This document shows positions 1 through 61,525 of a DNA stretch of 64,000 nucleotides, one piece after another; the first letter of the stretch is position 1, and each line of letters begins with the position of its first letter. Below the pieces are notes generated by a model. That model worked only from the letters and a program-made list of their open reading frames with translations, made no database searches and was not told the origin of the DNA. Origin of the DNA: Candidatus Thorarchaeota archaeon AB_25 (GTDB taxonomy: Archaea > Asgardarchaeota > Thorarchaeia > Thorarchaeales > Thorarchaeaceae); the NCBI GenBank assembly GCA_001940705.1, contig MEHG01000001.1, forward strand, positions 25,128 to 89,127, given 5' to 3'. The position numbers and the translations under genes are program-made.

Positions 1-1057
1 TTACTCTTTTTCCTGCTCGCAGCAGTTCAGATATCAGTAGAGCTAAGATATGGTGTCGCGAATTTTCAGTACCTCCGCATACGAGTGTTCCGGTTTCAAG
101 GTCCTGATGGGACATTCCTGCAGGGGGACCAGTTTGGAGTGTGTCAGGATTGAGTGTAACTCCAAGTTGATAATCATCAGGACGACCTCGAATCGGTGCA
201 ATGAACTGACCGGGAATATTGCTGCCAACCTCAGAAGCTAGCTCACTTCGTAGCTGAACCAACCATTCGGACAATTCTGAACCTGCTGCATAAAACCAAT
301 TACCTTGTTTGTCGATTTCATGCTGCTTCATTCTTTTGTAAAGCGCTCTTGGTTTTAGTCGCACCCATTCTTTCTCTGGAACTGCGGCTCGCACCGCAGA
401 CTCAAACGAGTCACTCTGAGTGGAGTCTCGTATTTGCCCAATAATCGTCGTGTGTGCAATCCAAAGACCACTACGTCGAGTAAGATATGCTTCCAGATTT
501 CCCTTTGATAATCTATTGAGATATCCTTCTAGCAAATCAGAGATCTTTTCTTCATTCATAGCCCGAGCTATCTTTTCTGGTTTCATTGTGACGAAGAGAC
601 CAAATCCATTTGATGTATCAATGGCACGCACCAACGAACCAACATTGCCAAGAAGATTGGGACTTGGCTTACCAAGATCCATTCCGACGGAGTAACGTGA
701 TCCTCCTACACCTTTCACATGTAGATTCTCTGGTGTCACTAGACACGAAAGATCACTTTCTGGGACTTCTTCCCAGGATTCTTGAATGAGTGCACTCATC
801 TCTTTTGTTTCTCGAATTTTCGGGGAAAAGAAATGGATGATCAGTAATACAGCGGAGGTGATTGTGACAATCACTGGAACGTAAAGACCAATCACAATTG
901 AGAGAAATGATGTAAACAGCAGGATTGCTAGTGGACGTCCAACAACACGATTCTCCCATCGAATCTCAGTCCCTGTAGTAATTGTACTCGATGATTCTGA
1001 AAGCTCCTGAAGAGGGTCGACCTCTGGTTTCGTACCAAGAATCAGTCGTTTACCCAA
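1..1057 (-). CDS. Partial CDS (first ~352 codons; 3' end lies beyond the window edge): membrane-anchored protein whose cytoplasmic part ends in a degenerate P-loop-like segment (HerA/VirB4-like NTPase fold suspected, not proven)
   Basis: Not in the supplied track because no stop lies in the window. I checked every minus-strand codon from 1057 down to 2 by hand and found no stop. TTG start at 1057 is preceded by AGGAGGGAG (6-nt spacer) and overlaps the upstream stop by 8 nt. One long hydrophobic stretch: RPLAILLFTSFLSIVIGLYVPVIVTITSAVLLIIHFF. The last residues GTLVCGGTENSRHHILALLISELLRAGKRV look like a Walker-A neighbourhood lacking GK[ST]. Confidence 0.65.
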   Translation of the reverse strand, partial: MGKRLILGTKPEVDPLQELSESSSTITTGTEIRWENRVVGRPLAILLFTSFLSIVIGLYVPVIVTITSAVLLIIHFFSPKIRETKEMSALIQESWEEVPESDLSCLVTPENLHVKGVGGSRYSVGMDLGKPSPNLLGNVGSLVRAIDTSNGFGLFVTMKPEKIARAMNEEKISDLLEGYLNRLSKGNLEAYLTRRSGLWIAHTTIIGQIRDSTQSDSFESAVRAAVPEKEWVRLKPRALYKRMKQHEIDKQGNWFYAAGSELSEWLVQLRSELASEVGSNIPGQFIAPIRGRPDDYQLGVTLNPDTLQTGPPAGMSHQDLETGTLVCGGTENSRHHILALLISELLRAGKRV

Positions 1058-1355
1058 GTTTTACTCCCTCCTGCTTTACAACTAGTCGTTTGGTTGTTCT
1101 TTGGAGCATGTCCAAAACTTGCTTGAGACGGTTGACGTATGCAGGGTCTCCGCCAGCAACAACAATCGAACGGTTCCCTGTCATCAACAGCTCTGGCATA
1201 TTTCCAAGTGTTGGATTTCCGTGAGCAACAAGTAAGGGCTGTCGTACGAGAACGGTCCATTTGTAGCCATGACCTAGTTCAAGAGACCTCATGATATCTT
1301 CTGGTTTGACACCAGGGGGTATTTCCAGACCGGAACGTAATTCATTAGGATACAT
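1050..1355 (-). CDS. Hypothetical protein (101 aa), member of the RadA-like/XPD operon
   Basis: Track ORF. The start overlaps the upstream stop by 11 nt and the stop overlaps the downstream TTG start by 8 nt. No recognisable motif. Confidence 0.5.
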   Translation of the reverse strand: MYPNELRSGLEIPPGVKPEDIMRSLELGHGYKWTVLVRQPLLVAHGNPTLGNMPELLMTGNRSIVVAGGDPAYVNRLKQVLDMLQRTTKRLVVKQEGVKLG

Positions 1356-1944
1356 TGGTCTGCAAACCTCCTGTGTTCACTATCAGAATATCCTGTTTCT
1401 CTGCTCGCTCCACAGGCAAATGTGGGTAAGCTGCTCTCATCGCGCTCTCTAGAATCATGATGTCTGCCATCATGAGTTTCGAAAGTTGTTCTAATCTCAA
1501 TCGAGTGTTCGGCAATCGGAGTGCGCTTCGACGGACTAGCATACCAACTTTCGTCAATTCATTTCCAATTGGGCGTGTTATGAAGAAGACTAGAGTTCCA
1601 CCATTTTCATTCTGAAACCGTGTGTGCATAGCCTGTAGAACTTTGCTTGCAGAATGGCTAAGATCAATCCCTAGTGGTACACTACCAAGTAGTCGCGCAG
1701 CACACAGTTCGACTCGCCAAGGTCTGACAATTGCGACAAATCCTCGTTGTTCATCCCATAGGACATTCGGATCATAGCTTGACCAATAGTCGAGATAGAG
1801 GACTGCAACATAGACTAGAAGTCCTGTTCCAATCAGGGCTAATCCTGTGAGATCATTGGGTGTAATCCAGATTTTCAGGAGTAATGTGGTGGTTATCACT
1901 GAAAGTGCGAGCCACTTTAGTCCAGGCGTGTTAATGATATTCAT
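1345..1944 (-). CDS. Hypothetical membrane protein (199 aa; two N-terminal TM helices plus a soluble C-terminal domain)
   Basis: Track ORF. ATGA overlap with the XPD-like stop (1941-1944). Hydrophobic segments LKWLALSVITTTLLLKIWI and LALIGTGLLVYVAVLYL. Confidence 0.55.
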   Translation of the reverse strand: MNIINTPGLKWLALSVITTTLLLKIWITPNDLTGLALIGTGLLVYVAVLYLDYWSSYDPNVLWDEQRGFVAIVRPWRVELCAARLLGSVPLGIDLSHSASKVLQAMHTRFQNENGGTLVFFITRPIGNELTKVGMLVRRSALRLPNTRLRLEQLSKLMMADIMILESAMRAAYPHLPVERAEKQDILIVNTGGLQTNVS

Positions 1945-3902
1945 TCTGTCAAACCCTCCTGCATCTTTACAAATTGGCTAATCGCAAGTTTGAGCTCCTC
2001 AACATCTCTATACGGCCAGACATCAGATACGATCTCTTCACCGAAGACCTTCAGATGCTTGAGAAATCGATTATCAAGTAAAACTACAACTCCAGTATCA
2101 GTTGGAGACCTTCGTAATCGACCAACCAACTGGGCAACCTGACGTATTGATGGAACAACTGCTGCATAGTAATACCCGGTCCCATTTCCAAACCGAGAGT
2201 CATACCATCGTTGAAGCGCAGCCTGATAGCTTGTGGGTGGACTAAATGGAATTCCCACACCAATGATCAGGTCAATCATACTGGTGCCATCGCTGACTAG
2301 GTCAATACCCTCAGAGAACTTCCCACCATAGACACAGAATACTGCTTGAGGTTTGTCCGAAATAGCTTCAGCAAGTGTTTCTATACGCTCTGCCCTGGTC
2401 TCAACAAGGGTCTCTCGAAAGCCAGTGTCAATTGAGTAACTCATGACCTCGTGTAGCATCTTGTAACTTGGAAACGAGATCAGTGCACTCTTGTTTGCGG
2501 GCATGGTCGTTAATGCCGCACTGATTCTGTCTGCAAGACTACGCCAAAGGTCTGGACCCCGCAACTGGTACTTTGTATTCAGCGTCTTGTCAACGAGCAC
2601 AAGCCTTGTGCCTCTAGGATATGGACTCAAAAGGTCTTCAGAGACCGCTCCTGTCACTCCAAGGAGTCTCGAATAGTAATCAAGAGGTCTCAGAGTGCCG
2701 GACATCAGAACAGCTGATCTCGCACTCCGTAGAATTGGTGCTGTTAGTCCTGATGAGTTCAAGGGTTGAATCATGAGTACAGATTTTGAGGTTGGTGCAT
2801 CTTCCTTCCAAGATTTCTTGTCCTGCAGTGTGACATGCCATCCCTCACTCTTCGATGCCCTCTGAGAAGTGAATAGAAACTCGATGAGTCGGTCCAGCGG
2901 GGTCTCTATTAGTCCTGCATTCTCTGGGTCTCCTAATCCTGGTCTTCCTGCGGAGTGTAGTATCTCGAGGTCATCCTCCTTGACGAATCGAGGTGCAACA
3001 TCCCACTTGTCAAGAACTCGTTCACTTCGATTATACATTCTATCCAGGTTGACCATCATGGTCTCCCAGAGGAAGTCTATGACCTCTCTTATCCATTTGA
3101 GACCGGTCTCTTTAGTGACCAGCTGATGGTTCTCCTTTAACCATCGTAGGTCTTCATTGCTGAGCTGAGATGTTTCTGCATCGAGGACATGGCCAGGGAG
3201 ATTATGTGCTTCATCAACCAGGAGATCAACCTCAGGCAAGGAGATTCCAAGGGATGAAAGGAGTGCATCACGCACTCTTGATCTGAAGATGTAGCTGTAG
3301 GGTCCGATTATGACACGACTGCTCCTGGCACACCAGCGCATCATCTCATATGGACAGACGCCTTCATCAGCAGCCCTTTCTTCGACTCTTTCTCTCGTCA
3401 CGACTCCTGTATTAAGAAGGTCCTCAACGACCTCGCGAAGCACATCACGAATGACAATTCTTCCTTCCGCCTTATTCTTCTGGTAGAAGTTCCAATAGTG
3501 GTGACATGACCCAGTTTTTATCATCTGAGCGCAGGCTCGCATGAATCCTGTAGAGCTCAGAGACTCCATCTGGTGTCGAATTGGACAGACGTGAACTCTC
3601 GAGACCATGGTCGTAGCAGTGAGGTCTGGTTTGACTGAACGAAGTACCTCCAGCTCACTCTCGAAGACCTTAGACTGAGAATGAGTCCTTGTCAAAGCGA
3701 ACAGTCTAGAGGCGTTGTCATGACCTCGAGCAGCCAGATAACCAGAAAGGACTGCAATTGTCTTTCCTACACCGCAATCAGCGGAAAGTAATCCGACAGT
3801 TTTCGTTGAGTACGTGTCAACTGCGAGACCGACTGCCTTCTCCTGATGTGGTCTAGGAGAATATGGAAAGAATTCCATTGTGTCGGTCGTCGCTGCGCTC
3901 AA
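1941..3902 (-). CDS. xpd: XPD/Rad3-family (DinG-like) 4Fe-4S DNA helicase
   Basis: 653-aa ORF. N-terminal FPYSPRPHQ, Walker A DCGVGKT, DEAH box VDEAHNL. Cys residues in VCPIRH, CAQMIKTGSC and GVCPYE lie between motifs I and II, as in the XPD Fe-S domain. The start is either the TTG at 3902 (GAGG upstream, abuts the upstream stop) or the ATG at 3878 (MEFFPYSPRP). Confidence 0.9.
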   Translation of the reverse strand: MSAATTDTMEFFPYSPRPHQEKAVGLAVDTYSTKTVGLLSADCGVGKTIAVLSGYLAARGHDNASRLFALTRTHSQSKVFESELEVLRSVKPDLTATTMVSRVHVCPIRHQMESLSSTGFMRACAQMIKTGSCHHYWNFYQKNKAEGRIVIRDVLREVVEDLLNTGVVTRERVEERAADEGVCPYEMMRWCARSSRVIIGPYSYIFRSRVRDALLSSLGISLPEVDLLVDEAHNLPGHVLDAETSQLSNEDLRWLKENHQLVTKETGLKWIREVIDFLWETMMVNLDRMYNRSERVLDKWDVAPRFVKEDDLEILHSAGRPGLGDPENAGLIETPLDRLIEFLFTSQRASKSEGWHVTLQDKKSWKEDAPTSKSVLMIQPLNSSGLTAPILRSARSAVLMSGTLRPLDYYSRLLGVTGAVSEDLLSPYPRGTRLVLVDKTLNTKYQLRGPDLWRSLADRISAALTTMPANKSALISFPSYKMLHEVMSYSIDTGFRETLVETRAERIETLAEAISDKPQAVFCVYGGKFSEGIDLVSDGTSMIDLIIGVGIPFSPPTSYQAALQRWYDSRFGNGTGYYYAAVVPSIRQVAQLVGRLRRSPTDTGVVVLLDNRFLKHLKVFGEEIVSDVWPYRDVEELKLAISQFVKMQEGLTE

Positions 3903-4526
3903 TCAGTCTGCCTCCACTCTTAGTCGTGCCTCTGCGCGGTAAATTCTGAATTTCAATGAGAAGTACTTGTGTAGCATTCGTTGGAATCTCATCATGAGGT
4001 CAGGAGAACTGAATCCGGTCTCCTTCCTTGCCATCCGTTCAACAATAGGGGGGCTGAACCCATTCTTTCGAGCAGCCTTCCAGAACCATTTCTCAACCTC
4101 CCTCATCGTTGAGAGTAAATGGGAAAGTGAATCTTCGATGATTGACATCAGCTCTTGGACTGACTTCTTTGGGTCTTTTGGAAGCCCAGAGACCTTGATA
4201 CCTGTGGGTAAGTAGACTGCTACCCCTTCCGTACTGTCTAGCTTGACTTCTCTTGGAACACCTTTAGTTCCACGAAGGGTCTCTAGTAGTGAGAGAAGCT
4301 TTGGAAGCTGTGGGAGCATAGGTCTCTCTGAGTCTGTGCTTCTCCAGTCAACTCTGGTCACTACGTAGAGTTCTGGGTCAGGACCTCTCGCACGCTCCAA
4401 CACTGTAATCCTGTGCGCCGATTCTCGCAACAAGAGGTTCACCAGGTTAATCATTGAGCTACGAGGTATGTTGGGTGGAGTCGTTGGTACCCATGTCGAC
4501 TGGTCGGGATTATCAGTACTAGACAT
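3903..4526 (-). CDS. Hypothetical protein (207 aa)
   Basis: Track ORF with an 8-nt overlap with the upstream gene; its stop abuts the XPD-like start. No motif recognised. Confidence 0.55.
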   Translation of the reverse strand: MSSTDNPDQSTWVPTTPPNIPRSSMINLVNLLLRESAHRITVLERARGPDPELYVVTRVDWRSTDSERPMLPQLPKLLSLLETLRGTKGVPREVKLDSTEGVAVYLPTGIKVSGLPKDPKKSVQELMSIIEDSLSHLLSTMREVEKWFWKAARKNGFSPPIVERMARKETGFSSPDLMMRFQRMLHKYFSLKFRIYRAEARLRVEAD

Positions 4527-4974
4527 CAGTCCACGCCTCCTTTGTCAGGGATACAGCAACACCATTATTGCAGATCGCTCCCTCAGACTCGAGTGTGTCC
4601 ATGAACTTCATGGCACGACCTAGGTCTATTCCCGCCTCACTACATTCCCTCATCACATTCTCGATGGAAACTGCGCGGCCTCTGTTCATATCTATAAGTG
4701 ATTCAATGATATTGAACACTCGTCGTTTGATCCCAATTCCTCGACCATTTCCACCTTGTTTCACCTTGGAGATCTGCGACTCGATAACGAGCTCGCGGAC
4801 ACAGGACTGGGCTTCCTGGACTGTCACAGCATAGAGAGTGCCAGCCTCATGCAGGATGATTCCTTGGCAGAGGCTGCAGCGAGAGGCTTCATCTTCAGTT
4901 TCTACGTGGGAATAGCCAATATTCCTGCAGTGATTGCATCGGTATACTCTGAACATCCCTCGCATACGGTTCAC
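4519..4974 (-). CDS. Zn-ribbon (CxxC...CxxC) plus C-terminal winged-helix-like DNA-binding protein
   Basis: YRCNHCRN...x17...RCSLCQG gives four Cys in a ribbon spacing. The C-terminal RVFNIIESLIDMNRGRAVSIENVMRECSEAGIDLGRAMKFMDTLESEGAI looks like a wHTH. The GTG start shares nt 4974 with the RadA-like stop; alternative ATGs at 4965 and 4956. Confidence 0.55.
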   Translation of the reverse strand: MNRMRGMFRVYRCNHCRNIGYSHVETEDEASRCSLCQGIILHEAGTLYAVTVQEAQSCVRELVIESQISKVKQGGNGRGIGIKRRVFNIIESLIDMNRGRAVSIENVMRECSEAGIDLGRAMKFMDTLESEGAICNNGVAVSLTKEAWTDV

Positions 4975-6050
4975 TAACTCTCACCCACCACGGTCTCGGC
5001 CTCGACTACAATCTCTTCTTCAACCTCGGGAGTGTCCTCCTTCACCTCGAGACCCTCACCTTGTTTTTCGAAGTATTCCTTTATGTCAGGTTCAATCTCT
5101 TTCTTCGTCTTCGCGTCTGGATACATACCACCCCAACCAACGATGAGCTCTGCATCAAACTCAGGAAGTCCAGCGTTATCCTGCAACTCGATCTTTCGGA
5201 TATCGCCCTTGGTTCTTCGTGTGTAGAATCTGTAATCGCTAGCGTGTGATATGATATGGCCTCCCACTGGAGCATTCGGGTTTCCTCCATAGGTGGAGAT
5301 CTTAGCCATGACTTGGTTGGAATAAGCGAAAATGCAGTCGGTCGCTGTGGACGTTCGGCGCATCTGGTTGAGGAGGTTGTTCATGTCCTGTTGCCTGATT
5401 CTCATGTTTTCCAGACCTGTGTACTCTGCGCGGAAGAGACCTGTGAACGAGTCAATGACCACTAGTTTGTAATCTTGCTCGGCACACATCTGGGGTATTG
5501 TCTCAAAGATCTCTGTTATCTGGCCAGATAGGACGACCTCTGCACGACCGATGTTTCCAAGGGTCACGTCTGGATCTAGTCCGTGTCTAATTGCATTGGC
5601 CCTGATGGTACGTGGTTTGAAGCTGGACTCAGTGTCCAACCAGAGAACCCTTCCTTCGAGACCTCCCTTCTCAAGTGGGAGCTGAGCTGTCACGGCTAAT
5701 TGACTGACCCACTGAGTTTTTCCGCCTCTTGCTGGGCCGAAAAATTCTACTATGCTTCCGACCTCGATTCCGCCACGAAGGGCCTGATCGACCTTTGGGA
5801 TTCCAGTGGTGAGTCGGGGCTTAGTCGCCATCTCTTGCTCTATCTCGAGACCTGACCTGAACCCGAACTTACCCACGAGGAGCCGAGCGTTCTTGATGAC
5901 CTTCTCGCATGTACCTTCACCCATCTTAGTCTTCTTTAGTAATTCAACTGGGTTCTGGACAGCTAGAAGTTCAGCTGTTGTGACGTAAACTTCCCTCAGT
6001 TTCTTTGCGACTGCGGGACCAATACCCTGAACAGCCTCGAGTTCTGTCAT
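4974..6050 (-). CDS. radA: RadA/Rad51-type recombinase homolog, divergent, with an acidic C-terminal extension
   Basis: N-terminal HhH-like segment (VQGIGPAVAKKLRE). Walker A FFGPARGGKTQ, Walker B KLVVIDSF. Core similarity to archaeal RadA throughout (LWLDTESSFKPRTI, SNQVMAK..GGNPNAPVGGHIISHAS). About 45 extra C-terminal residues rich in E/V. Confidence 0.85.
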   Translation of the reverse strand: MTELEAVQGIGPAVAKKLREVYVTTAELLAVQNPVELLKKTKMGEGTCEKVIKNARLLVGKFGFRSGLEIEQEMATKPRLTTGIPKVDQALRGGIEVGSIVEFFGPARGGKTQWVSQLAVTAQLPLEKGGLEGRVLWLDTESSFKPRTIRANAIRHGLDPDVTLGNIGRAEVVLSGQITEIFETIPQMCAEQDYKLVVIDSFTGLFRAEYTGLENMRIRQQDMNNLLNQMRRTSTATDCIFAYSNQVMAKISTYGGNPNAPVGGHIISHASDYRFYTRRTKGDIRKIELQDNAGLPEFDAELIVGWGGMYPDAKTKKEIEPDIKEYFEKQGEGLEVKEDTPEVEEEIVVEAETVVGES

Positions 6051-6514
6051 GGAATCTCCTCCTCTTCAAGCCGCTTAGAAACTGGACCCTCCAATGGGAC
6101 CAGTCTGAGGAATGCTGGCAGGTCAAACATTGGGACGACGATCTCACCGTTAGACCGCAATAGTGTAAGACCATTTAGAAGTTGGATGACCTCTTCCTGT
6201 CGTGCTAGTGGTACTCGAAAGTACAGCCCTTCAGGGGTGACCTCACCAGTTATGCTGATATAGCCACCAAGAGCGTCATATGCGGACCCAACTAGACCGT
6301 CACCGTCTTGTGGGGCTGTTCCAGGATCTGCAGGTACAACATCTCCCACCAATCGAATCATCTGGAAGATGTCATCATAGAACTCTTCCCAGAGCCAACT
6401 GGGACTTCTGTTCTCTGCGACCCGTAATCCTGCTGCTGCACCCGCGAGCCACGCCACTTGGGGCATGGTGAAAGGTGCACGAGGAACACTTTGAATAAAA
6501 TCGTCTACTTGCAT
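6047..6514 (-). CDS. Hypothetical protein (155 aa)
   Basis: Track ORF. ATG abuts the upstream TAG (6514-6517) and there is an ATGA overlap with the RadA-like start (6047-6050). Confidence 0.55.
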   Translation of the reverse strand: MQVDDFIQSVPRAPFTMPQVAWLAGAAAGLRVAENRSPSWLWEEFYDDIFQMIRLVGDVVPADPGTAPQDGDGLVGSAYDALGGYISITGEVTPEGLYFRVPLARQEEVIQLLNGLTLLRSNGEIVVPMFDLPAFLRLVPLEGPVSKRLEEEEIP

Positions 6515-7267
6515 CTAAATTTCTACCTCCTCACCGATCTGTACTCCGCTAATGACCTCTGGTAGTGGTTGAAGATCCTCCAACCATTCCTTGAGGCCGC
6601 GTATCATGGGGTCTCTCAACTGGCCATTGCTAAGTACTGAAGCTAAGAGAGCCTTTGATGCTACCACAACTCTTTGCAGTGCCAACTCACGTTCTGAGAA
6701 TGTCATTGGACGGAACCATGGCATCGTCACAAATCCAGATTCTCCAGCAAGGTATTCTCGCCAGTCAATCTCCCAGTTCGCGACAAGGGGATCACGCCTA
6801 ACTATTCCAAGTAGGACATCGGTCCACTCAGTCCAACGCTTCATGAAGTTGCGAACCGACGCAGACAGAGCCTTCAGACTGCCACCCTTTCTCTCGGACA
6901 GTCCTTCAAAAACAAGAACCAGTCTGGTCGCGTCATCCTTGGCAATCGCACTGAGTGCAAGTCCAGTGTTGATGGATGTGGTCATGAGTGCTAGTCCAGG
7001 GACAATCCCTGGAATGTCGCAAGGGAGATACCTGCCTTTCCGCTCTGGTTCAAACTTTTGGAACGGAGAGAGGATATCACTCCTTAGTCCAACAATCATG
7101 ATCAGACTTGCATCTCTGTCTGGTCCGTGATATCGAAGCCGAGCTTTTAGGACAGTCCGGTCGGTGTTACTGAACATCACTTGAAGCGGCAGGGTGACGT
7201 CTATCATTCCCGTACCCTTCGCTTCTCTGTGAGCGGCCATCAGTTGATCTTCGAGTTGTGTTAGCAT
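6515..7267 (-). CDS. Hypothetical protein (250 aa), first gene of the operon
   Basis: Track ORF preceded by ~520 bp of non-coding DNA. No motif recognised. Confidence 0.55.
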   Translation of the reverse strand: MLTQLEDQLMAAHREAKGTGMIDVTLPLQVMFSNTDRTVLKARLRYHGPDRDASLIMIVGLRSDILSPFQKFEPERKGRYLPCDIPGIVPGLALMTTSINTGLALSAIAKDDATRLVLVFEGLSERKGGSLKALSASVRNFMKRWTEWTDVLLGIVRRDPLVANWEIDWREYLAGESGFVTMPWFRPMTFSERELALQRVVVASKALLASVLSNGQLRDPMIRGLKEWLEDLQPLPEVISGVQIGEEVEI

Positions 7268-7278
7268 ACCTTTGCACC

Positions 7279-7310
7279 GTACGTATGCAACGTATACGTA
7301 GACCTATACG
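7279..7310 (-). promoter_or_regulatory. Clustered CGTATA repeats and a 10-nt palindrome immediately upstream of the operon start (candidate operator/promoter element)
   Basis: GTACGTATGCAACGTATACGTAGACCTATACG. CGTAT(G/A) at 7282 and 7291, inverted TATACG at 7305, perfect palindrome ACGTATACGT at 7290-7299. Lies 12-43 nt upstream of the ATG at 7267. Confidence 0.25.
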
Positions 7311-7555
7311 AAAGTTGGGTCTATGATGAAGAAGGCATCATAACCCTTATTTTCCATAATGAAGGTCTATCAAAATTAGCGGTCAGATTATTGAATATCT
7401 TGAGCTAGAAAATCTCGTTTAGTCGACTCATTTCTATTATTCAGTATACCCTTAGGTCCTTTTCTGCAACAGAAGTAATAGACGAACAACAAAAATCGAA
7501 CACTAATACACGAAGTTCTGTGGGACTCACAAAGGATGGAGTACTAGCTGGGCTC

Positions 7556-7726
7556 GATTGCACATTTGACCCTTGATGATTGAAAGAAAATGTGGAGGAA
7601 GCCCTAAAAGGTCAAAGAAGCGTTATCCGCCCGTATAATCTCGACGCTGAGGTTATCTATATCCCCTAATTGTCCTACTCGACTCTTAGCTTGTAGGGTC
7701 ACTGGACAGAGAACACTTTGCTTTCC
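7556..7726 (+). promoter_or_regulatory. Conserved ~170-nt leader element, copy A, upstream of GH3 paralog 1
   Basis: Aligns without gaps to 11916-12085, roughly two thirds identical by hand count. Includes the identical 20-mer GATTGCACATTTGACCCTTG. Confidence 0.5.
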
Positions 7727-7790
7727 TTTTCCATGTTTATGCCATGGGATGCAGGAGTTGTATCCTGAATCCTAAGGAGGCAAAAGCAAG

Positions 7791-9332
7791 ATGTCAATTA
7801 TGAGAAAGCTTGTGTCTGTAGTGGCCAAGCGCAAGATGAAGGAGATCGAATATGTACTAGATCATCCGATTGAGGAATCAAACAAGTTACTAACAGACTT
7901 ACTCACTAAACATCAGGATTCAGTCTTAGGACGAAGGTATGGATTTGATTCCATCACATCTCCTGAGCAGTTTGCTGAGAGAGTTCCTCTTACAGACTAT
8001 AAGAAGATGAAACCTATCATTGATGAGGTGTACAAGAATCCTACTGGGAAGATAATGACTTCAGAACCAGTGATCTGGTATCTGACTACGTCAGGATCGA
8101 CTGGAAATCAGAAACAGATGCCGTTGACCAAGTCTGGATTAAAGACGGCCTCGGTCGGTGGTTCCCGAATGTGGATGGGGTATATGAATCAACATCCTGA
8201 CAACTCGAAGATACTCGATGGGACGATGATAATGTTCGGAGCGCCATCCAACACAGGCGAGATAAATGGAGTACCAACGGGGTATGGTTCGGGAGTGTAT
8301 GTGGGCAATCAGAACAGGATCTTCAAACGACTCATCAAACCAGGTGAGGATGTATTTTGTATTGAGGACATGGAGGAGAAGATGAAGGCCTACGCTCTGT
8401 GCACAGCAACGAACGATGTGACAGCATTACAGGGCATAGCAACCCTAAACCTTGCGTTCATGCGTAGAATGGAGGAACAGTATGGTCCTTGGCTCCTTGA
8501 ACAGCTAAAAGGAACAAAGCATGAACGAAAAATCCGTGAATCGCTGGACTCTGATGGACGGCTCGATGTAGCAAAGTTTTGGCCCAATCTCAGACTATTC
8601 GTGAGTGGAGGAATCGATGTAGACCCATACAGAAAGTGGGTAAAAACTGCGTTACCAAATTCAACTGTCTGGGAAGGCTATGCCGCCTCAGAGGGATATC
8701 TTGGAAGTCAGATTCTCCCCGAAAATGGTCTTCAACTAATGCCGGACTTGAATTATCTAGAGTTCATTCACGAGCGCGAGATTGAAAGTGAAACCCCCAG
8801 GGTAATTCCGCTCTCAGATGTGAAGAAAGGATCACGTTACGAGCTTGTGATGTCCAATCATAATGGTTGGTACCGATACAGATTGGGTGATATGGTGACT
8901 TTCACAAGAACAGATCCATACACAATCAGGCATATCTCTCGCAAAGGAGGGATAGTAAGTCTGGCTGGTGAAAAACTGAGTGATGCACATGTGATCAATG
9001 CGATGTCTGAAGCAAGTAAGGTGACCGGAGCACAGGTCATGGATTACTCTGTAGTAGGGGTTGCTGAGGGAAACATTCCTTACTATGTTATCGCAGCATT
9101 GTTCAATGACGATGTGGACTCTCGGGAATTCGTTGATGCCTTTGAGGAAGCAATTGGAGAAGTGAATTGGGAATTCATCAACAGTCAGGGAATGGGGGCT
9201 CTTGGTCCAACTATTCTACGAAAGATGGTAAAATCCAGACATGACGAGGTCGTGAAGGAAACCCACCTTCAAGCTAAACCAGTTCCTTTGACAGTGGATA
9301 AGGCTGTCTTTGAGGTCTGTGAGGCGACATAG
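7791..9332 (+). CDS. GH3-family acyl-acid amido synthetase-like adenylating enzyme (paralog 1)
   Basis: 513 aa. The TTSGSTGNQKQMPLT motif corresponds to the GH3 SSGTSxGxxKxxP nucleotide-binding motif. Overall length and C-terminal layout fit GH3. AAGGAGG lies 9 nt upstream of the ATG. Confidence 0.8.
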   Translation: MSIMRKLVSVVAKRKMKEIEYVLDHPIEESNKLLTDLLTKHQDSVLGRRYGFDSITSPEQFAERVPLTDYKKMKPIIDEVYKNPTGKIMTSEPVIWYLTTSGSTGNQKQMPLTKSGLKTASVGGSRMWMGYMNQHPDNSKILDGTMIMFGAPSNTGEINGVPTGYGSGVYVGNQNRIFKRLIKPGEDVFCIEDMEEKMKAYALCTATNDVTALQGIATLNLAFMRRMEEQYGPWLLEQLKGTKHERKIRESLDSDGRLDVAKFWPNLRLFVSGGIDVDPYRKWVKTALPNSTVWEGYAASEGYLGSQILPENGLQLMPDLNYLEFIHEREIESETPRVIPLSDVKKGSRYELVMSNHNGWYRYRLGDMVTFTRTDPYTIRHISRKGGIVSLAGEKLSDAHVINAMSEASKVTGAQVMDYSVVGVAEGNIPYYVIAALFNDDVDSREFVDAFEEAIGEVNWEFINSQGMGALGPTILRKMVKSRHDEVVKETHLQAKPVPLTVDKAVFEVCEAT

Positions 9333-9342
9333 ATTGGATTCC

Positions 9343-10230
9343 ATGAATGAAACCCAAACTGCTCATTCTGTACAACATGCAAGGGTGGTGGGCAATCACT
9401 ACCAATGCATGACTGACAGAAACATTGGAATGATTAATGCTGATGAGCAGAACAGAATCGCAAACACAGTGATAGCTCAGGCAGGTGTCGGTGGCAACGC
9501 AGACATTGTCATAACTCTCGCACAGATGGGGTTTCAGCACTTCAGGTTAGCTGATCCTGATATCTATGAACTCTCGAATCTGAACCGTCAGCTAGGTGCT
9601 AGAGTTTCGACATTGGAACGAAACAAGGCCCGAGTGGTTACAGAAGACGTGCTGGAAATCAATCCAGAAGCCGAAATCAAAGTGTATCCCGATGGCATCA
9701 CCTGGGACAATGTTGAGGAGTTCGTGGATGGAGCAGATGTCATAATCGATGGACTCGATTTGTCAGTCATGCATCTCAGAAAGAGAATGTTTGATCTGGC
9801 TAGGGTTCGCGGCATACCTGTCATCACATGTCCTGTCATTGGATGGGGTGCAGGTATTGCTATCTTCGATCCAGAAAGGAGCCCCTCGTTTGGAGACTTC
9901 TTTGGAAAGATTCCTCAAGATCAGAAATCAGACGAGTGGCGGAGGTTCATCAGCAACTATGCTCTTCACTTCATCTCATCCAGACCAACAGGGATTGATG
10001 TCACCCTCGGTATGAAACGGACGTTGGAAGGAAGACCCCCTGCAGTTGCTGCACCTTGCAGACTGAATGCCGCTCTAGTACCAACCGCAATCTTTGGCTA
10101 TCTGTTTGACAAGGGAAATCTCCCCTTAGTACCAACCACACTCTACGTGGATATCCTTGGCGGAAAGATTTCTAGCACTGGACCAAAGAAGCGATGGTTT
10201 GTCAAGAAAGCCATTGATGTTTTGTCCTGA
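9343..10230 (+). CDS. ThiF/MoeB/HesA (E1-like) adenylyltransferase family protein
   Basis: Rossmann motif AQAGVGGNAD, arginine-finger motif ELSNLNRQ, DGLD. No CxxC zinc motifs. The track ORF begins at the TTG at 9310, inside the GH3 gene; I prefer the ATG at 9343, 10 nt after the GH3 stop. Confidence 0.8.
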   Translation: MNETQTAHSVQHARVVGNHYQCMTDRNIGMINADEQNRIANTVIAQAGVGGNADIVITLAQMGFQHFRLADPDIYELSNLNRQLGARVSTLERNKARVVTEDVLEINPEAEIKVYPDGITWDNVEEFVDGADVIIDGLDLSVMHLRKRMFDLARVRGIPVITCPVIGWGAGIAIFDPERSPSFGDFFGKIPQDQKSDEWRRFISNYALHFISSRPTGIDVTLGMKRTLEGRPPAVAAPCRLNAALVPTAIFGYLFDKGNLPLVPTTLYVDILGGKISSTGPKKRWFVKKAIDVLS

Positions 10231-10243
10231 GATAGTACAGCGA

Positions 10244-11185
10244 TCATGGTGTTTCTTGGACTCTGAAGCGAAGTTGAGCACGCCTTCGCTGAAGCCATCC
10301 ATCTAGGTCATCAACAAGGTACTTAGAGAAGATGATTATCGAAGTTGCATAAAGTATTACTACTAGAAGCAGGGCGATTGCCATTTGAATAGGGGGATTA
10401 CCAAGCAGGACATCCGGCCCAGCTATCACCTCTGAAGTCGATATCTTGATGTTTTCATTCAGGAAGTTGATCAACCAATGTGCGATTATCGGTCCTAGCA
10501 GTGTTCGTCTACTACTGAACTTCTCATAGTAGATACCGAATACTCCACCCAAGAGACCTGAGAATACAACATACACGAAAATGTGGGATGTGCTTAGAGT
10601 TCCAGTCCCTGCGAAGTAGAAGGGCCAGACGAGATGGTAGAGGCCGAAGATCGCTGCAGAGATTAGGATTGCTCGATTGACTGAAACATATTCTCGCAAT
10701 CCGTTCTGAAGAGCTCCTCGAAACAAGATCTCCTCATAGACCGCATTGATTAGAAAAAAGATTGCACTATACCATAATAGGTCCGGTCGGATTATGGTTA
10801 CACTTAGATCTCGAGAAGAGTCAATGAATGCCCAGTAGATAACCGAGGCAATAGCATTACCCATTAGGAACAACGCAACACCCAGAATGATTCCGAGTGT
10901 CACGTGCCTTCTTGTGTCTTCAATCTTCAATCCTAGAACGGAGGTTATCTGATTTCTTCGAAAGAACCAGAAGAATCCAAGAATAATGAGAAGTGGAAAG
11001 AGCTTACTGGGAAGGATGTTAAGCCACGACTCACTGAGGCCTAGGAGGAAAACATCGACATTCCTCCATACCACACCAATGAACAGGAACAGCCCTGCCA
11101 GAGCGAGCAGTGGAACATGGTCCCAAGTTTGTTTACTTGGTTCTTCGATCTCAGTCGTACTGACACTCAGCTGTTTCTTTCCCAT
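10244..11185 (-). CDS. CPBP (CAAX/Abi) family intramembrane metalloprotease
   Basis: Motifs YEEILFRGAL, FGLYHL and AHWLINF in a polytopic membrane protein. The track ORF (to 11560) overlaps the upstream gene out of frame, so I trimmed it to the ATG at 11185, 2 nt after the upstream TAG. Confidence 0.8.
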   Translation of the reverse strand: MGKKQLSVSTTEIEEPSKQTWDHVPLLALAGLFLFIGVVWRNVDVFLLGLSESWLNILPSKLFPLLIILGFFWFFRRNQITSVLGLKIEDTRRHVTLGIILGVALFLMGNAIASVIYWAFIDSSRDLSVTIIRPDLLWYSAIFFLINAVYEEILFRGALQNGLREYVSVNRAILISAAIFGLYHLVWPFYFAGTGTLSTSHIFVYVVFSGLLGGVFGIYYEKFSSRRTLLGPIIAHWLINFLNENIKISTSEVIAGPDVLLGNPPIQMAIALLLVVILYATSIIIFSKYLVDDLDGWLQRRRAQLRFRVQETP

Positions 11186-11187
11186 GA

Positions 11188-11853
11188 CTACAGGACACTC
11201 CTTGCTTCTACCTTGTACCATGGGTTTACGAGCGCCAATGTTGCCATTGCAGTAGATATTGCAGTAATCATTGCTGGAACAGAAGCCAAACCAATTGCCA
11301 TGAATGCAACAAGCCCTGCTTGTCCAACAAATGAGAACGCAGATGAGACAACCATCAGATCGCTGCGAACTTCTTTCAGACGTCCAGTCTTCCAGGTAAT
11401 AGCAAACGTGAGTACCATTCCACCCATGAAGAAGATGATGATGGGTAGATGAAGGAGCATGATAAGCTCCTGTGTCGGACCAAGAAGCAAAATACTCACC
11501 CAATAGACGATAACCAATCCAATGATTCGGAGATGGTGCTTTCTGATTCTGGGCAACCATATGTGGAGTAGAACGCCAACAAGGGGGACAGCTATTCCTC
11601 CAACAATGAGTGCTCTCATACGAAACACTTCAAGGGTCATTTCCAAGTATCCATACTCTGAAAGTAGGACCATGGTCTGATTAATTGCATGAGCAATGAA
11701 CACAATTCCAAACATCAGTGGTAGATCTGTCATGAGTCTGTTTTCTTGACGATACCAAATTATGATCAAATAGACCGCCATGATTGCTGCGAGTACAGAG
11801 GCGGCAAGACCAGGTAATAGTGTGAGGTCAAATACAAATTGCAATATGAACAC
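11188..11853 (-). CDS. Hypothetical polytopic membrane protein (221 aa, about 7 TM segments)
   Basis: Track ORF, hydrophobic throughout, directly upstream of the CPBP gene. Confidence 0.6.
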   Translation of the reverse strand: MFILQFVFDLTLLPGLAASVLAAIMAVYLIIIWYRQENRLMTDLPLMFGIVFIAHAINQTMVLLSEYGYLEMTLEVFRMRALIVGGIAVPLVGVLLHIWLPRIRKHHLRIIGLVIVYWVSILLLGPTQELIMLLHLPIIIFFMGGMVLTFAITWKTGRLKEVRSDLMVVSSAFSFVGQAGLVAFMAIGLASVPAMITAISTAMATLALVNPWYKVEARSVL

Positions 11854-11915
11854 CTATTGTTTAATTTTCCATAACATCATCATTGCGACACAATTTAAGG
11901 CCAGAGAAGAGCTAG

Positions 11916-12085
11916 GATTGCACATTTGACCCTTGCAGAACAGAACAAAAAGTGGAAAGGCCTCTAGGTTTCCAAATAAACAATATGGGCCCTCATAATC
12001 CAAGCGCTAACGTTATCGAACCTTCATCACTGTTCTACTCGATTCATAGTTGGCAGGATTGTTGTACAGAGGACACTTAGTTTCC
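11916..12085 (+). promoter_or_regulatory. Conserved ~170-nt leader element, copy B, upstream of GH3 paralog 2
   Basis: Same 20-mer GATTGCACATTTGACCCTTG and the same order and spacing of conserved blocks as 7556-7726. Confidence 0.5.
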
Positions 12086-12210
12086 ATTGTCTACACCTAA
12101 TGTATACGGTTTCGGGAGAGTTCTCCTGAGACTGGGAGGCAAGACTAGATGTCGAATCGAGAAAACGAAACATTTCGCATTGAAGAATCACAGGGAGGGG
12201 TGGTTCTCTG

Positions 12211-13749
12211 ATGGGAGTGATAAGCAAGCTCATTCCACTGTTGGCAAAGAGGAAGGCAAAGACGATTGCCGAGATCCTGAACAATCCAATCAGTCTGACT
12301 GAGGGCAAACTCATGTCGATACTTGAAACTCATAGTCAAACCAGGTTTGGAAAGGACAATAGCTATGCCAACATCCGGACACCTGAGCAATTTAGTGAAA
12401 CAGTCCCACTTCATGATTATCATTCAATGAAGCCCTATTGGGACCAGATTCATGTGAATCCTGAACAACCAATCATCACAGCAGACCCTGTGATATGGTA
12501 TGTCCAGAGTAGTGGATCTACTGGAAAACCGAAAGCCCTACCTCTAAGTGCGGCTGGTCTGAGCGACTACACTGGAGGGAGCATGTTGTTCCTCATGTCA
12601 TTCATCAATGCCAAGAAGGGAAACAACAAGATCTTCGATGGAACGATGCTCACCTTTGCTGCACCTGCAAAGATGGGTGAGATCAATGGAGTACCCCTCG
12701 GGTACATGACTGGAATCTCTCGTGAGATGATCGCCAACGCATTGCTCAAGAAGCTCATCAAACCGGGAGAGGATATCTTCAACATGACAAAGATGGGCGA
12801 GAAGCTCTGGGCATATGCAAAATATGCGGTCACAGAGAACATCACCTCTCTGGGTGGTATCACCACTCTCATCTTCGCATTCATTCGCCGTATGCAGAAT
12901 GAGTACGGACCCAGTCTGCTTGAGGAGTTCAAAGGCACAAAGCATGAGGCTAGGATCAGGGAGGCACTCAACGATGAAGGGACCCTTGACCTGAATGTCC
13001 TCTGGCCCAACCTGATAATGGTCGGTGCCACTGGTGTTGATGCGGATCCTTACAAGCCGTGGTTGAAAAGCACACTTCCGAAAGCGACTCTCTGGGATAA
13101 CTACGCTGGTTCTGAGGGTCTCTATGGAACTACACTCTTGAAGAACACAGACAATGGTATCCAGCTGTTACCACACATCAACTACTTGGAATTTATCCCT
13201 GAGTCTGACATCGAGAAGGAGGACCCAACAGCTATCCCCCTAGTAGATGTAAAGAAAGGCCAAAGGTACGAGTTGGTCCTCACTAACCTGATGGGCTACA
13301 CCCGATACAGGATTGGTGATGTGATGACTTTCAAGGACACAGACCCATATTCTGTATACAGGATTGGACGCAAGGGTAAGTCTGTCAACCTGACAGGTGA
13401 GAAGCTGTCAGACGCCCATGTCACAGAGGGTGTTGCTTATGCAACCAAGCAGACAGGAGCGGAGATACTGGACTACAACGTCTATGGAACAATTGGAGAT
13501 GGTCAGGCAAACTATATCATAGCAGCCATGTTCAACAACGATGTGAATCCAGTAGAGTTCGCACAAGCATTTGATGAGTGCGTCGGGAAAAACAACGGTG
13601 AGTTCAAGTATGTCCAGGAGTTTGGATCACTGGGACCCACCATCGTGAAGAAGGTAACCAAGTCTCACACCGAGAGCATCATCGAACGAACTCACATCCA
13701 GGCAAAGGCTGAACCTTTGACTGCCGAAGTTATTGAAGGAAGTGCATAG
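12211..13749 (+). CDS. GH3-family acyl-acid amido synthetase-like adenylating enzyme (paralog 2)
   Basis: 512 aa. QSSGSTGKPKALPLS motif. About half of the residues are identical to paralog 1 by eye. GGGAGGGGTG lies upstream of the ATG. Confidence 0.8.
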   Translation: MGVISKLIPLLAKRKAKTIAEILNNPISLTEGKLMSILETHSQTRFGKDNSYANIRTPEQFSETVPLHDYHSMKPYWDQIHVNPEQPIITADPVIWYVQSSGSTGKPKALPLSAAGLSDYTGGSMLFLMSFINAKKGNNKIFDGTMLTFAAPAKMGEINGVPLGYMTGISREMIANALLKKLIKPGEDIFNMTKMGEKLWAYAKYAVTENITSLGGITTLIFAFIRRMQNEYGPSLLEEFKGTKHEARIREALNDEGTLDLNVLWPNLIMVGATGVDADPYKPWLKSTLPKATLWDNYAGSEGLYGTTLLKNTDNGIQLLPHINYLEFIPESDIEKEDPTAIPLVDVKKGQRYELVLTNLMGYTRYRIGDVMTFKDTDPYSVYRIGRKGKSVNLTGEKLSDAHVTEGVAYATKQTGAEILDYNVYGTIGDGQANYIIAAMFNNDVNPVEFAQAFDECVGKNNGEFKYVQEFGSLGPTIVKKVTKSHTESIIERTHIQAKAEPLTAEVIEGSA

Positions 13750-13751
13750 CA

Positions 13752-14117
13752 GTGGCAAGTAAATATCAACTTAGACTACTTGCAGGAGGATTACTCATCA
13801 TATCCGCATGTACTCACACCATTCAGGTGTTTGTCTACGGAGGCGTGTGGCACAATATTGGTGCAGCAGTCTATGGTGCAATGTACCTCTTTTTTGGTAT
13901 CGGGCTAATCCGGTATCTCGACAAGAGGGGTCTCGTGGCACTATGCGTGATCCTACCCCTGATTGGGGGTGTTGGAGGAGTGATTAGATTCCTCTTCTTA
14001 CACACACATGTTGCCAACTACTTCATCATACTCCATGTATTGATAGACATAGTAGTAGTCCCGGTTTCCATCTACATGTATCGGAATATTGGGACTAGTG
14101 TAGCAACCACCATGTAA
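13752..14117 (+). CDS. Small hypothetical membrane protein (121 aa, about 4 TM)
   Basis: GTG start 2 nt after the GH3 stop with GAAGGAAG upstream. Hydrophobic throughout. Confidence 0.5.
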   Translation: MASKYQLRLLAGGLLIISACTHTIQVFVYGGVWHNIGAAVYGAMYLFFGIGLIRYLDKRGLVALCVILPLIGGVGGVIRFLFLHTHVANYFIILHVLIDIVVVPVSIYMYRNIGTSVATTM

Positions 14118-14178: not shown

Positions 14179-14312
14179 CCTCAATAGTCCACAGCAACTT
14201 CCCCTAGATTATTCCAGATTGATTGATTTAAGCAACCCAAGAGACAATATCTGACGAGATGATTCAAATACCACCCTTCCCACTGTACATCTGATTGGGT
14301 GGTGAGAAGTGC

Positions 14313-15392
14313 ATGGTTCGGATCGCTCATATCTCTGACTCGCATCTGGGGAGTTCGCTCTTCCAATTATCAGAGAGAAGAGAAGATGCACGTAAGTGCC
14401 TCAAGAAAGCAGTAGACATGGCTATGCAACATTCACCAGATATATTGGTACATACTGGTGACCTGTTTCACTCTCCCTTACCCCAGAATGAGGACATGAT
14501 ATTCGTTATTGAGTTGTTCAAGAGTCTGAAAGATAAGGTGCGACTCATCGTCCTTGATGGAAATCACGATTTGCCTTACAACTACAGATATGCCTACAGT
14601 CCGCTTCGAGGTCTCGAAACAATGGAGCTCATTGTTTCAACCGGGTCTGAACCCTACAAGACCTTCACCGAGTCTTTCGACGGTAAGAAAGTGGAGATAC
14701 ATCTTGTTTCGTGGACTACTAGTCACCAGCTTGAACATTTTCTGAATTCAGCAAAACCAGTAGAGAAGAACGCCTTGTTCTTTGCACACGACATTCATAT
14801 TCCGAAAGAGAACCTACCTGTCTACTTTCAATATTATGGCTGCGGACACAAGCACAATTTCTGGCTCGATGAGGAATATGACATTGGGAGACCTGGATCC
14901 ACTTGTATTGTGAATTGGCATCGTGAAATGGGAGGCAGAAAAAAGCTCATTGTAGTGGATATTGACAACTCTGACAAAAATGAGTATACATTGCAGACTC
15001 TGAATGATGTGAGAGAGTTCAAATTCGTCACAGGTCTGGATATCACAGGAATGGGAGCAGCAGAAGTTAACACCATGCTCAAGAGCTCTCTCGGAAAGCT
15101 CTCACCAAAGAAGAAGAAACCGATTATCATCGTGCAGGTCAATGGGCTAATCGATAATGAGACCGAGCGAGGGATTGAACGAGCTAATCTATTAGAGTAC
15201 GGAGAGAAGAAGCTCGACCCACTCTTCCTTCACATTGAGCCAAACTGGTCATCGGTTGGAGCTAGGCCAATTGAGCTCTCAGAACCACTTGACGTAGAGA
15301 CCTCGATTCTAGAGTACATGGAGCAGACAAAGGATAAGCGTGCAGCACAAGTGAAGATGATGATGCCAAGGTTCTTTGGAGGTGCAGATTAG
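14313..15392 (+). CDS. Mre11/SbcD-type calcineurin-like nuclease
   Basis: MVRIAHISDSHLG, GDLFH, DGNHD and GCGHKH motifs. The track start (TTG at 14295) is probably too early; the ATG at 14313 gives the canonical N-terminus. Confidence 0.8.
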   Translation: MVRIAHISDSHLGSSLFQLSERREDARKCLKKAVDMAMQHSPDILVHTGDLFHSPLPQNEDMIFVIELFKSLKDKVRLIVLDGNHDLPYNYRYAYSPLRGLETMELIVSTGSEPYKTFTESFDGKKVEIHLVSWTTSHQLEHFLNSAKPVEKNALFFAHDIHIPKENLPVYFQYYGCGHKHNFWLDEEYDIGRPGSTCIVNWHREMGGRKKLIVVDIDNSDKNEYTLQTLNDVREFKFVTGLDITGMGAAEVNTMLKSSLGKLSPKKKKPIIIVQVNGLIDNETERGIERANLLEYGEKKLDPLFLHIEPNWSSVGARPIELSEPLDVETSILEYMEQTKDKRAAQVKMMMPRFFGGAD

Positions 15393-61500: not shown

Positions 61501-61525
61501 GAAATTCCTCCATATCATTTATCAA

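Follow-up and report, generated by a model that had tools for sequence, protein, structure and literature searches.

Among the promoter motifs that define a regulon in archaea is the Thermococcales glycolytic motif, bound by TrmB-family regulators. Archaeal Lrp-type (FFRP) regulators recognise clusters of imperfect sites with A/T centres and wrap DNA around themselves; in their control regions the sites lie upstream of, or overlap, the B recognition element (BRE) and TATA box, and one regulator acts on several promoters (PMC2995911). Rotational signals of another kind position archaeal nucleosomes, which favour AA, AT, TA and TT dinucleotides about 10 bp apart and exclude pentamers made of A and T only (PMC3691661). 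A conserved element in a 64,000-nucleotide (nt) stretch of the genome of Candidatus Thorarchaeota archaeon AB_25 (hereafter the window) invites comparison with these systems. It stands upstream of two paralogous GH3 genes, GH3-A and GH3-B (copies A and B of the element), and its distal part recurs upstream of the divergently oriented gene X. No description of it was found in the literature, and it is an undescribed cis-regulatory module of a known general kind. The explanation favoured here, with a probability of about 0.62, is that of a composite element: a helically phased promoter/operator module that works at the DNA level and is anchored by ATTGCA-W5-GACC (W, A or T), followed by a short 5' untranslated region (5' UTR).

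The two GH3 copies are far more alike than neutral DNA of their age should be. Positions are counted from the A of ATTGCA (+1 is 7557 in copy A and 11917 in copy B). The initial annotation reported a gapless alignment of about 165 nt, some two thirds identical, opening with an identical 20-mer and leading to proteins that are about half identical, and measurement bears it out on each count. Without gaps, copy A (7556-7726) can be laid against copy B (11916-12085) with 66% of positions identical over 165 nt, or 65% over 171 nt; 171-nt segments of the window paired at random average 25% and reach 41% at most. The 20-mer, GATTGCACATTTGACCCTTG, has exactly two occurrences in the window even when three mismatches are allowed, and none in 100 shuffles; it forms a sharp edge, 5' of which the ungapped identity of the two copies is 17-37%. 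Both proteins have the GH3 N-terminal and central domains and are 48% identical, and their DNA, aligned by codon, is identical at 54% of all positions and at 31% of third codon positions. Because 66% upstream stands against 31% at these saturated neutral sites, the upstream DNA is under selection, as had been argued from the expectation that neutral DNA would no longer align. The homology does not end at 7726/12085, where the annotation had closed the element. In a MAFFT alignment it continues for about 235 nt in all, to an invariant GGAGGCAAGACTAGATGTC, and ends with a shared GGAGG...ATGTC, that is AGGAGGCAA..AGATGTC. In both copies 233-235 nt separate the ATG of this block from the start of the element; this ATG is the GH3-A start codon in copy A (7791) and the start of an upstream open reading frame (uORF) in copy B (12149). 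The unequal gap to the start codon that had been noted (64 versus 125 nt) is therefore real, but it is explained by the 63-nt uORF, which copy A lacks.

The proteins most similar to GH3-A (identity up to 94%) come from metagenome-assembled genomes (MAGs) of Candidatus Thorarchaeota. These are Asgard archaea, so bacterial promoter logic is not applicable. Searching one genome per species with the GH3 alignment gave 52 loci (L numbers below denote loci), and further loci gathered from encoding contigs were mostly duplicates of earlier ones. Searched with an nhmmer profile made from the two window copies, 12 of these loci prove to have the full element, about 235-240 nt long, directly upstream of GH3 at 13 further places. 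An exact 22-mer search of metagenome contigs returns five contigs, all with a GH3 leader copy, among them three new copies. There are thus about 18 GH3 upstream copies among Thorarchaeota, and the proposal of a shared cis-regulatory element is upheld by its retention upstream of GH3 orthologues in many genomes of the lineage. The copies are of two types: in A-type copies (winA, L002, L001a and L027) the conserved ATG is the GH3 start, and in B-type copies a uORF is inserted between the conserved ATG and the GH3 start.

A profile built from GH3 copies alone also matches L054 at 1380-1487 (E = 1e-5 to 1e-7), upstream of a homologue of gene X, and gives weaker, in-register matches at gene X elsewhere. 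An opposite-strand half-element lies upstream of the GH3 leader in the window and in L002, L027, L030, L033, L034, L036, L050 and L057. With a 28-copy profile every X copy scores E <= 1e-8 except that of L050 (E = 9e-4), and no fourth module copy appears in the 64-kb window, where the gene X module diverges from copy A at a distance of 84 nt. What the GH3 and X types have in common is the first 110-135 nt or so: the anchor, in which ATTGCA and GACC flank five A/T-rich bases; a stretch rich in A; a (C/T)TNATWATC box near +80 whose TA is invariant; then CGCTGA; and a TTATC/TATAAA block at about +100 (22-28 copies for the two boxes). In the gene X module of the window, CAATAATCTGACCGCTAATTTTGATAGACC corresponds to the TATA-like blocks of the GH3 copies. 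Further 3', the two types share only GTACGGT and the context of Shine-Dalgarno (SD) sequence and start codon, GCAA.TAG.ATG. In seven of the nine X loci measured, 203-204 nt separate the anchor from the gene X ATG; the distance is 188 nt in L036 and 193 nt in L050. Gene X heads a tightly packed operon of X, p155, RadA, p151, p207, an XPD/Rad3-type helicase and two more ORFs (window 1050-7267, minus strand). By tblastn, the divergent arrangement in which X, p155 and RadA read away from GH3 and the genes behind it is kept across most of the 52 loci, including L002, L008-L010, L012, L015, L017, L023, L028, L030, L033-L039, L042, L047, L050 and L057. Gene X and p155 are lineage-specific, the gene X family being known so far almost only from Thorarchaeota MAGs. 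Neither these two nor p121 has a sequence match in Pfam, NCBIfam, PADLOC or PDB, and the AlphaFold2 model of the gene X product is poor (predicted local distance difference test score, pLDDT, 55).

Several other features were seen in the same upstream regions. An AAAWAAG-NG-TTATGA-like motif, another BRE/TATA-like candidate, occurs twice in X upstream regions, at +56..+72 and +117..+133 and so about 61 nt apart (examples are window 7354-7338 on the minus strand, and 1434-1450 and 1495-1511 in L054), and once in GH3 modules, at about +56; its duplication in X regions accounts for out-of-register nhmmer matches. In several genomes an ORF of about 150 aa lies on the GH3 strand between gene X and a B-type GH3 (about 1716-2258, minus strand, in L060-L067; about 3193-3690, plus strand, in L036). 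It appears to end just 5' of ATTGCA, the frame in L030 and L036, read by eye, being ...RTYERW with its stop a few bases before the anchor, so that the module there would be a short intercistronic region. GGACCTAYGAA, considered as a motif 5' of the anchor, was rejected, as by eye it appears to be the C-terminal coding end (...RTYERW) of the upstream ORF in the same two loci.

Could the shared sequence have a trivial origin? A gene-conversion tract, or a dispersed or mobile repeat resembling a miniature inverted-repeat transposable element, might by chance have come to lie upstream of both GH3 genes, and both the third, partial copy nearby and the identity of the 20-mer in the window copies, from which each orthologue departs by two or three bases, would suit such an origin. 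In the 5' module, though, the paralogues of the window genome are 64% identical and orthologues 68-69%, and in the 3' part the figures are 61-68% and 78-88%. With paralogues no more alike than orthologues, nothing points to recent gene conversion across the whole module, and the positions common to the paralogues can on this comparison be taken as the constrained ones. The module has no terminal inverted repeats, is present in only three copies in 64 kb and has no match in phage or plasmid collections, and the contigs recovered with the 22-mer all carry it in front of GH3. The initial annotation had raised the concern that the element might be scattered over unrelated loci or be missing upstream of GH3 in relatives. 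Neither is the case: every copy found holds a syntenic position, in front of either GH3 or gene X, all three in the window are at such promoters, and the GH3 copies recur at the Thorarchaeota loci counted above. Conversion or dispersal is thus very improbable. The chance that the element encodes a small protein is very small. A 21-codon basic ORF does stand at the same place in both window copies, as first annotated, but in 15 orthologous copies stops or missing starts break all six frames, and mismatches lack a 3-nt periodicity (22/18/20). Only the separate uORF downstream in B-type copies stays open, and the doubt that the annotation itself expressed about coding was well placed.

A more demanding question is whether the element acts as DNA or as RNA. 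The initial annotation left the choice between a structured, riboswitch-like leader over 7556-7726 and an operator or promoter array, of which the array is the better supported, the same module being found upstream of a third operon unrelated to GH3, that of gene X and RadA. No Rfam family matches the element in the scan that the annotation had suggested: cmscan of the whole window at gathering thresholds returns only PYLIS_3, which lies elsewhere, and at E <= 10 over 7300-12400 there are two chance snoRNA matches inside coding DNA. RNAalifold finds zero consensus pairs in the 5' module (22 sequences) and zero in the whole X upstream regions (11 sequences), and a scan of column pairs finds no covarying stacks. 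The CACATTT/AAATGTG pairing proposed for copy A is not conserved among copies, and the single-sequence minimum free energy (MFE) z-scores of the two window copies, -1.2 and -1.0, are uninformative.

The pattern of change also speaks against RNA. The 5' module is nearly free of insertions and deletions (indels) though parts of it vary freely, while the loop of the proximal hairpin P3 does have indels. At the anchor, where information content in the 28 stacked copies rises from 0.15 to 1.3 bits, the five-base centre switches between A-rich and T-rich (CATTT, CTTTT, GAAAT, CAAAA and AAAAG among copies). Such switches between A runs and T runs are equivalent in duplex DNA and not in RNA, which argues against a function at the RNA level. 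Archaeal RNA polymerase terminates intrinsically at runs of five to seven T in the sense strand. The GH3 copies hold ten of them, all at or before +113 and none from +114 to +235; counting A5+ as well as T5+ runs, 23 of 27 module copies have at least one.

A further DNA-type signal is periodic. Dinucleotides of A and T (WW) recur in the module with a period of 10.3 bp, at a pooled z of 9.5 over 28 copies, a value inflated, like the Rayleigh values, by the descent that relates the copies. Among 21 periods tested it is the best in 11 of 28 copies, and it is one of the two strongest in 14 of 28, compared with 2 of 45 control segments from other intergenic parts of the window. The phase is set by the distance from the anchor (mean resultant length R = 0.90) and is identical in GH3-type and X-type copies, with maxima at +8.5, 29, 39, 50, 60, 70, 81, 91, 101, 112, 122 and 132, which places all TATA-like blocks on one face of the helix; from +136 to +236 the period is absent. 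A more independent test is provided by 28 distant GH3 loci without detectable sequence similarity to the element. There the mean maximum z is 2.4 at -235..-101, with z of at least 2.5 in 12 of the 28; it drops to 0.7 at -100..-1 and 0.5 in coding DNA, and none of the 28 loci reaches 2.5 in either. Judged from these signals, the distal half looks most like a region that acts at the DNA level.

The chief rival, which corresponds to the riboswitch-like option of the initial annotation, is a long transcribed leader, with a transcription start site (TSS) at or just before ATTGCA and the whole region of about 235 nt (GH3) or 204 nt (X) acting as RNA. A protein or small RNA might recognise linear motifs in it, its fold might be so irregular that RNAalifold misses it, or its 5' end might pair with the SD sequence or start codon. 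The abrupt conservation edge at ATTGCA is what a +1 position would give, and TTTAAG is present about 22 nt upstream in a few copies (winB, L029, L053), but most have no TATA-like sequence at about -26 from the anchor. In L002 a spacer of only 54 nt, which contains G/C, separates the divergent X and GH3 anchors. GH3 and X copies alike have an A-rich sense strand, yet in several copies this strand carries T6-T7 runs at +96..+113 that would terminate archaeal RNA polymerase. Pairing of the two ends does appear in the MFE folds of both window copies, which join the 5' end to the start-codon region, and UGCAA beside the X start codon is complementary to the 5' UUGCA; set against this are the lack of a family match, of consensus pairs and of covarying stacks, and z-scores of only -1.2 and -1.0. 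The switches in the anchor spacer would be drastic for an RNA, and a phase-locked 10.3-nt periodicity confined to the distal half has no RNA rationale. Like the riboswitches and leader RNAs in Rfam, the element lies upstream of paralogous genes, is better kept than neutral DNA and has a sharp 5' edge. Unlike riboswitches, it matches no family, has covarying structure only in the hairpin next to the SD sequence, and bears oligo-T runs and a DNA-type periodicity. Taken together, this makes a long leader rather unlikely.

Periodicity raises the alternative of sequence-programmed chromatin, in which the phased A/T array would position archaeal histone oligomers (about 120-130 bp, or about four dimers) over the three promoters and ATTGCA-W5-GACC would be a boundary or a pioneer-factor site. 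The module does have the roughly 10-bp AA/AT/TA/TT repeat that positions archaeal nucleosomes, and it shares with curved or phased A-tract promoter elements and with such positioning sequences a 10-10.5 bp period and a fixed rotational setting (PMC3691661). The array spans about 130 bp in fixed phase and is conserved in distant loci. What sets the module apart from archaeal nucleosome-positioning sequences, however, is its sequence-specific anchor and its long runs of A and T only. Its A5+ and T5+ runs are common although A/T-only pentamers are reported to be excluded (PMC3691661), and the region is A/T-rich, not centred on G/C. Chromatin as the whole explanation is decidedly improbable. A related and more specific idea treats the module as an architectural switch: the anchor would recruit or bound a wrapped particle, either histone-based or made of an oligomeric regulator (possibly X or p155), whose rotational positioning over the TATA-like boxes would co-regulate RadA/XPD and the two GH3 operons. 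As stated, this is quite unlikely.

The composite reading, as preferred here, would divide the work between two parts. The distal part, from about +1 to +110/135 (7557-7691, 11917-12051, and 7470-7336 on the minus strand), would be a promoter-upstream and core-promoter module joining three units in one Thorarchaeota regulon: GH3-A-ThiF, uORF-GH3-B-p121, and gene X-p155-RadA-...-XPD. The sequence-specific site ATTGCA-(A/T)5-GACC marks its far edge, and the A/T blocks every 10.3 bp on one helix face take in the two TATA-like boxes near +80 and +100. Phasing on one face would explain why the length of the region is fixed and implies either bent DNA or DNA wrapped on an oligomeric protein, which would control initiation. 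Transcription would then start near the proximal end of the module, at about +110 to +135. The proximal 100 nt or so, found with GH3 genes only, would be a 5' UTR made of the linear block ACAGAGGACACTTAG, a hairpin abutting the SD sequence and the invariant SD-spacer-ATG, to which B-type copies add a short uORF translationally coupled to GH3-B. Conservation, modularity, the lack of RNA structure, the periodicity, the hairpin and the uORF are observed in the sequences, whereas wrapping on a protein, the place of the TSS and co-regulation of the three units are inferred from them.

Several points weigh against this reading, over and above the inflation of the pooled statistics by common descent. 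There are three TATA-like candidates, two at about +80 and +100 and a weaker third near +150, which a crude TATA score does not set apart from other A/T blocks, and the +80 box has no evident purine-rich BRE of the canonical kind beside it. The anchor is not palindromic, which is unusual for a dimeric regulator, and no DNA-binding protein was identified nearby, X and p155 being without recognisable domains. Nor does the reading account for the linear blocks TACTCGATTCATAG and ACAGAGGACACTTAG. A short possible pairing of the 5' AUUGCA with UGCAA just 5' of the X start would fit a long RNA leader instead.

Compared with Lrp/FFRP control regions (Ss-LrpB, the Sa-Lrp autoregulatory regions, the Ptr2 upstream activating sites), the module resembles them in an anchor with a 5-nt A/T centre between two conserved arms, and in helical phasing over about 130 bp of strictly kept length, a signature of wrapping read from sequence alone. 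It differs from their clustered, (semi)palindromic boxes of 13-15 bp in that the anchor is not (semi)palindromic and has no regularly spaced repeats; near +66..+76 the GH3 copies have a weaker WWW-SGMCC, without a regular array. No gene of the Lrp family is linked to the locus. With the Thermococcales/TrmB motif the module has in common a short conserved DNA motif at a fixed distance from BRE/TATA (here candidate boxes), functionally linked operons and discovery through comparison of upstream regions. That motif, unlike the module, is of 15-20 bp, whereas the homology here extends over some 110-135 bp, has helical A/T phasing and so far counts three regulon members.

Signs of action at the RNA level are limited, within the GH3 upstream region, to hairpin P3, which ends 0-5 nt 5' of GGAGG and lies mostly beyond the span first annotated. 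After realignment to a covariance model 74.6% of its cells are paired, against 68% in shuffles (none of 500 reaches the observed value), 10 of the 13 pairs show changes on both sides, and a slide control peaks at 0; this covariation is moderate support, for the model alignment leans towards its own structure. Hairpins of unrelated sequence occupy the same place in distant GH3 upstream regions (L003-5, L008, L012, L015, L037, L039 and L047) and lend P3 independent support. Since P3 would have to be transcribed, the TSS should fall between about +110 and +185, where the preferred candidate would be TCATAG/TTATGA, a conserved sequence near +131 that follows the +100 A/T block by some 28 nt. The core ACACTT of block ACAGAGGACACTTAG is kept even in distant loci, and SD-spacer-ATG is invariant among GH3 copies. 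Other candidate helices were tried and rejected: a hairpin P2 around ACAGAGGACACTTAG has no covariation and equals its shuffles, and two long-range helices, one of TACTCGATTCATAG with the SD-ATG spacer and one of the 5' ATTGCAC with the start codon, form in few close relatives and are not compensated elsewhere.

Attempts to place the TSS from other promoters in the window gave little. Expectation maximisation over 36 window upstream regions yields a weak CAAGA(A/C)TCT, which is not a TATA box and is not usable for the purpose, and there are no tRNA genes to serve as promoter references in the window or in 57 loci. The CAAGA(A/C)TCT sequence lies 23-35 nt 5' of about a dozen starts, including 31796(-), 34820(-), 27829(-), 18014(+), 52729(+) and 44731(-), and resembles the CAAGACT between SD sequence and ATG of GH3; it may serve as a signal specific to the lineage, either close to the promoter or in the 5' UTR.

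The uORF of B-type copies (MSNRKNGIWSFRIEESQGGVVL-like) is open in all 14 B-type loci, where it has 20-28 codons and its indels are in frame. Its ATG is homologous to the GH3-A start codon, and in 11 of 14 loci its stop overlaps the GH3 ATG (TGATG or TAATG). In the window the overlap is between TGA and the GH3-B ATG, and the last codons carry GGGAGG, the SD sequence of GH3-B. The peptide is weakly constrained (42 synonymous versus 153 non-synonymous codon differences), so the uORF looks like a translational coupling device for GH3-B and not like the source of a functional peptide. Coupled uORFs and leader peptides are comparable in their 20-28 codons, the stop over the GH3 ATG and the 3' codons that double as the GH3 SD sequence. 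The weak constraint on the peptide sets it apart from leader peptides, as does the fact that no alternative attenuator or terminator structures were found. The features of the three copies are collected in Table 1.

Table 1. Positions of the element and adjoining genes in the window
Feature	Position	Strand	Remarks
Anchor, copy A, GATTGCACATTTGACCC (ATTGCA, 5 A/T-rich nt, GACC)	7556-7572	+	Exact 20-mer; information jump
5' module, copy A, +1..+135	7557-7691	+	Helically phased A/T blocks; putative promoter/operator DNA
TATAAT in 5' module, copy A	7634-7639	+	
GTTATCTATATCC in 5' module, copy A	7652-7664	+	
TACTCGACTCTTAG in 5' module, copy A	7676-7689	+	
Proximal part, copy A, putative 5' UTR	7692-7790	+	Alignments; P3 covariation; without 10.3-nt periodicity
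Conserved block ACAGAGAACACTTTG in proximal part, copy A	7706-7720	+	
Hairpin P3, copy A	7747-7772	+	
SD sequence GGAGG, copy A	7776-7780	+	
GH3-A	7791-9332	+	ATG at 7791
Anchor, copy B, GATTGCACATTTGACCC	11916-11932	+	+1 is the A at 11917
5' module, copy B, +1..+135	11917-12051	+	
CATAAT in 5' module, copy B	11994-11999	+	
GTTATCGAACC in 5' module, copy B	12012-12022	+	
TACTCGATTCATAG in 5' module, copy B	12036-12049	+	
Proximal part, copy B, putative 5' UTR	12052-12148	+	
Conserved block ACAGAGGACACTTAG in proximal part, copy B	12066-12080	+	
Hairpin P3, copy B	12107-12134	+	
GGAGG, copy B	12135-12139	+	
uORF, copy B only, MSNRENETFRIEESQGGVVL and stop	12149-12211	+	63 nt, 20 codons
GH3-B	12211-13749	+	ATG at 12211
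5' module, third copy, upstream of gene X	7336-7471	-	E = 2.9e-11 with 28-copy profile
Anchor, gene X, TGTTGCAGAAAAGGACC (also given as TGTTGCAGAAAAGGACCTAAGG)	7455-7471	-	
Proximal part upstream of gene X, with GTACGGTGCAAAGGT just 5' of ATG (7267)	7268-7335	-	
Gene X, first gene of operon	6515-7267	-	250 aa

The genes around the element hint at what the GH3 proteins do. Both match NCBIfam OlsH (lyso-ornithine lipid synthetase) in part and below threshold, and their neighbours at 9310-10230, 13752-14117 and 11188-11853 include membrane proteins, a CPBP protease and a ThiF-like adenylyltransferase; these associations hint at lipid- or membrane-associated amide-bond chemistry. Among the 52 loci, membrane proteins, CPBP/CAAX proteases, ThiF and Mre11-like genes often lie downstream of GH3. 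In the window, genes for a metallophosphatase (Mre11/SbcD-like) and an SMC_N/AAA_23 protein (Rad50/SbcC-like) follow the GH3-B cluster at 14295-16666 (plus strand), and with an Mre11-like gene at this position in many loci, repair genes flank GH3 on both sides. At 10244-11853 on the minus strand, a 438-aa CAAX/CPBP protease ORF and a 221-aa membrane ORF have about 370 nt in common. The membrane frame is the better kept of the two across loci (76% versus 43%) and protease matches begin near residue 126, and the N-terminal extension of the protease is probably spurious. Farther off, the PYLIS_3 match (60462-60561, minus strand, 45 bits, above the gathering threshold) lies inside an uninterrupted 488-aa ORF of the MttB family (60052-61518), which adjoins a gene for a B12-binding protein (61526-62173); as the ORF has no in-frame UAG, the match reflects coding homology and not a pyrrolysine insertion site.

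To our knowledge, almost nothing is known of how transcription is regulated in Asgard archaea, nearly all of which are uncultured. The locus described here offers a promoter architecture that can be aligned, with a fixed anchor, a fixed length and helical phasing, together with an SD-adjacent hairpin and a coupling uORF. It also offers a candidate regulon of three operons that would join RadA/XPD repair to GH3-type adenylating ligases with their membrane-protein neighbours and a ThiF-like enzyme. For genome scans it carries a caution: conserved leaders of archaeal paralogues can be promoter modules that act as DNA, not riboswitches, and A-tract periodicity, the distribution of oligo-T runs and the pattern of indels can separate promoter DNA from leader RNA without RNA data. 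Should the architectural switch prove true, the module would be a natural case, defined by comparative genomics, in which positioned chromatin controls promoters in the archaeal lineage nearest to eukaryotes.

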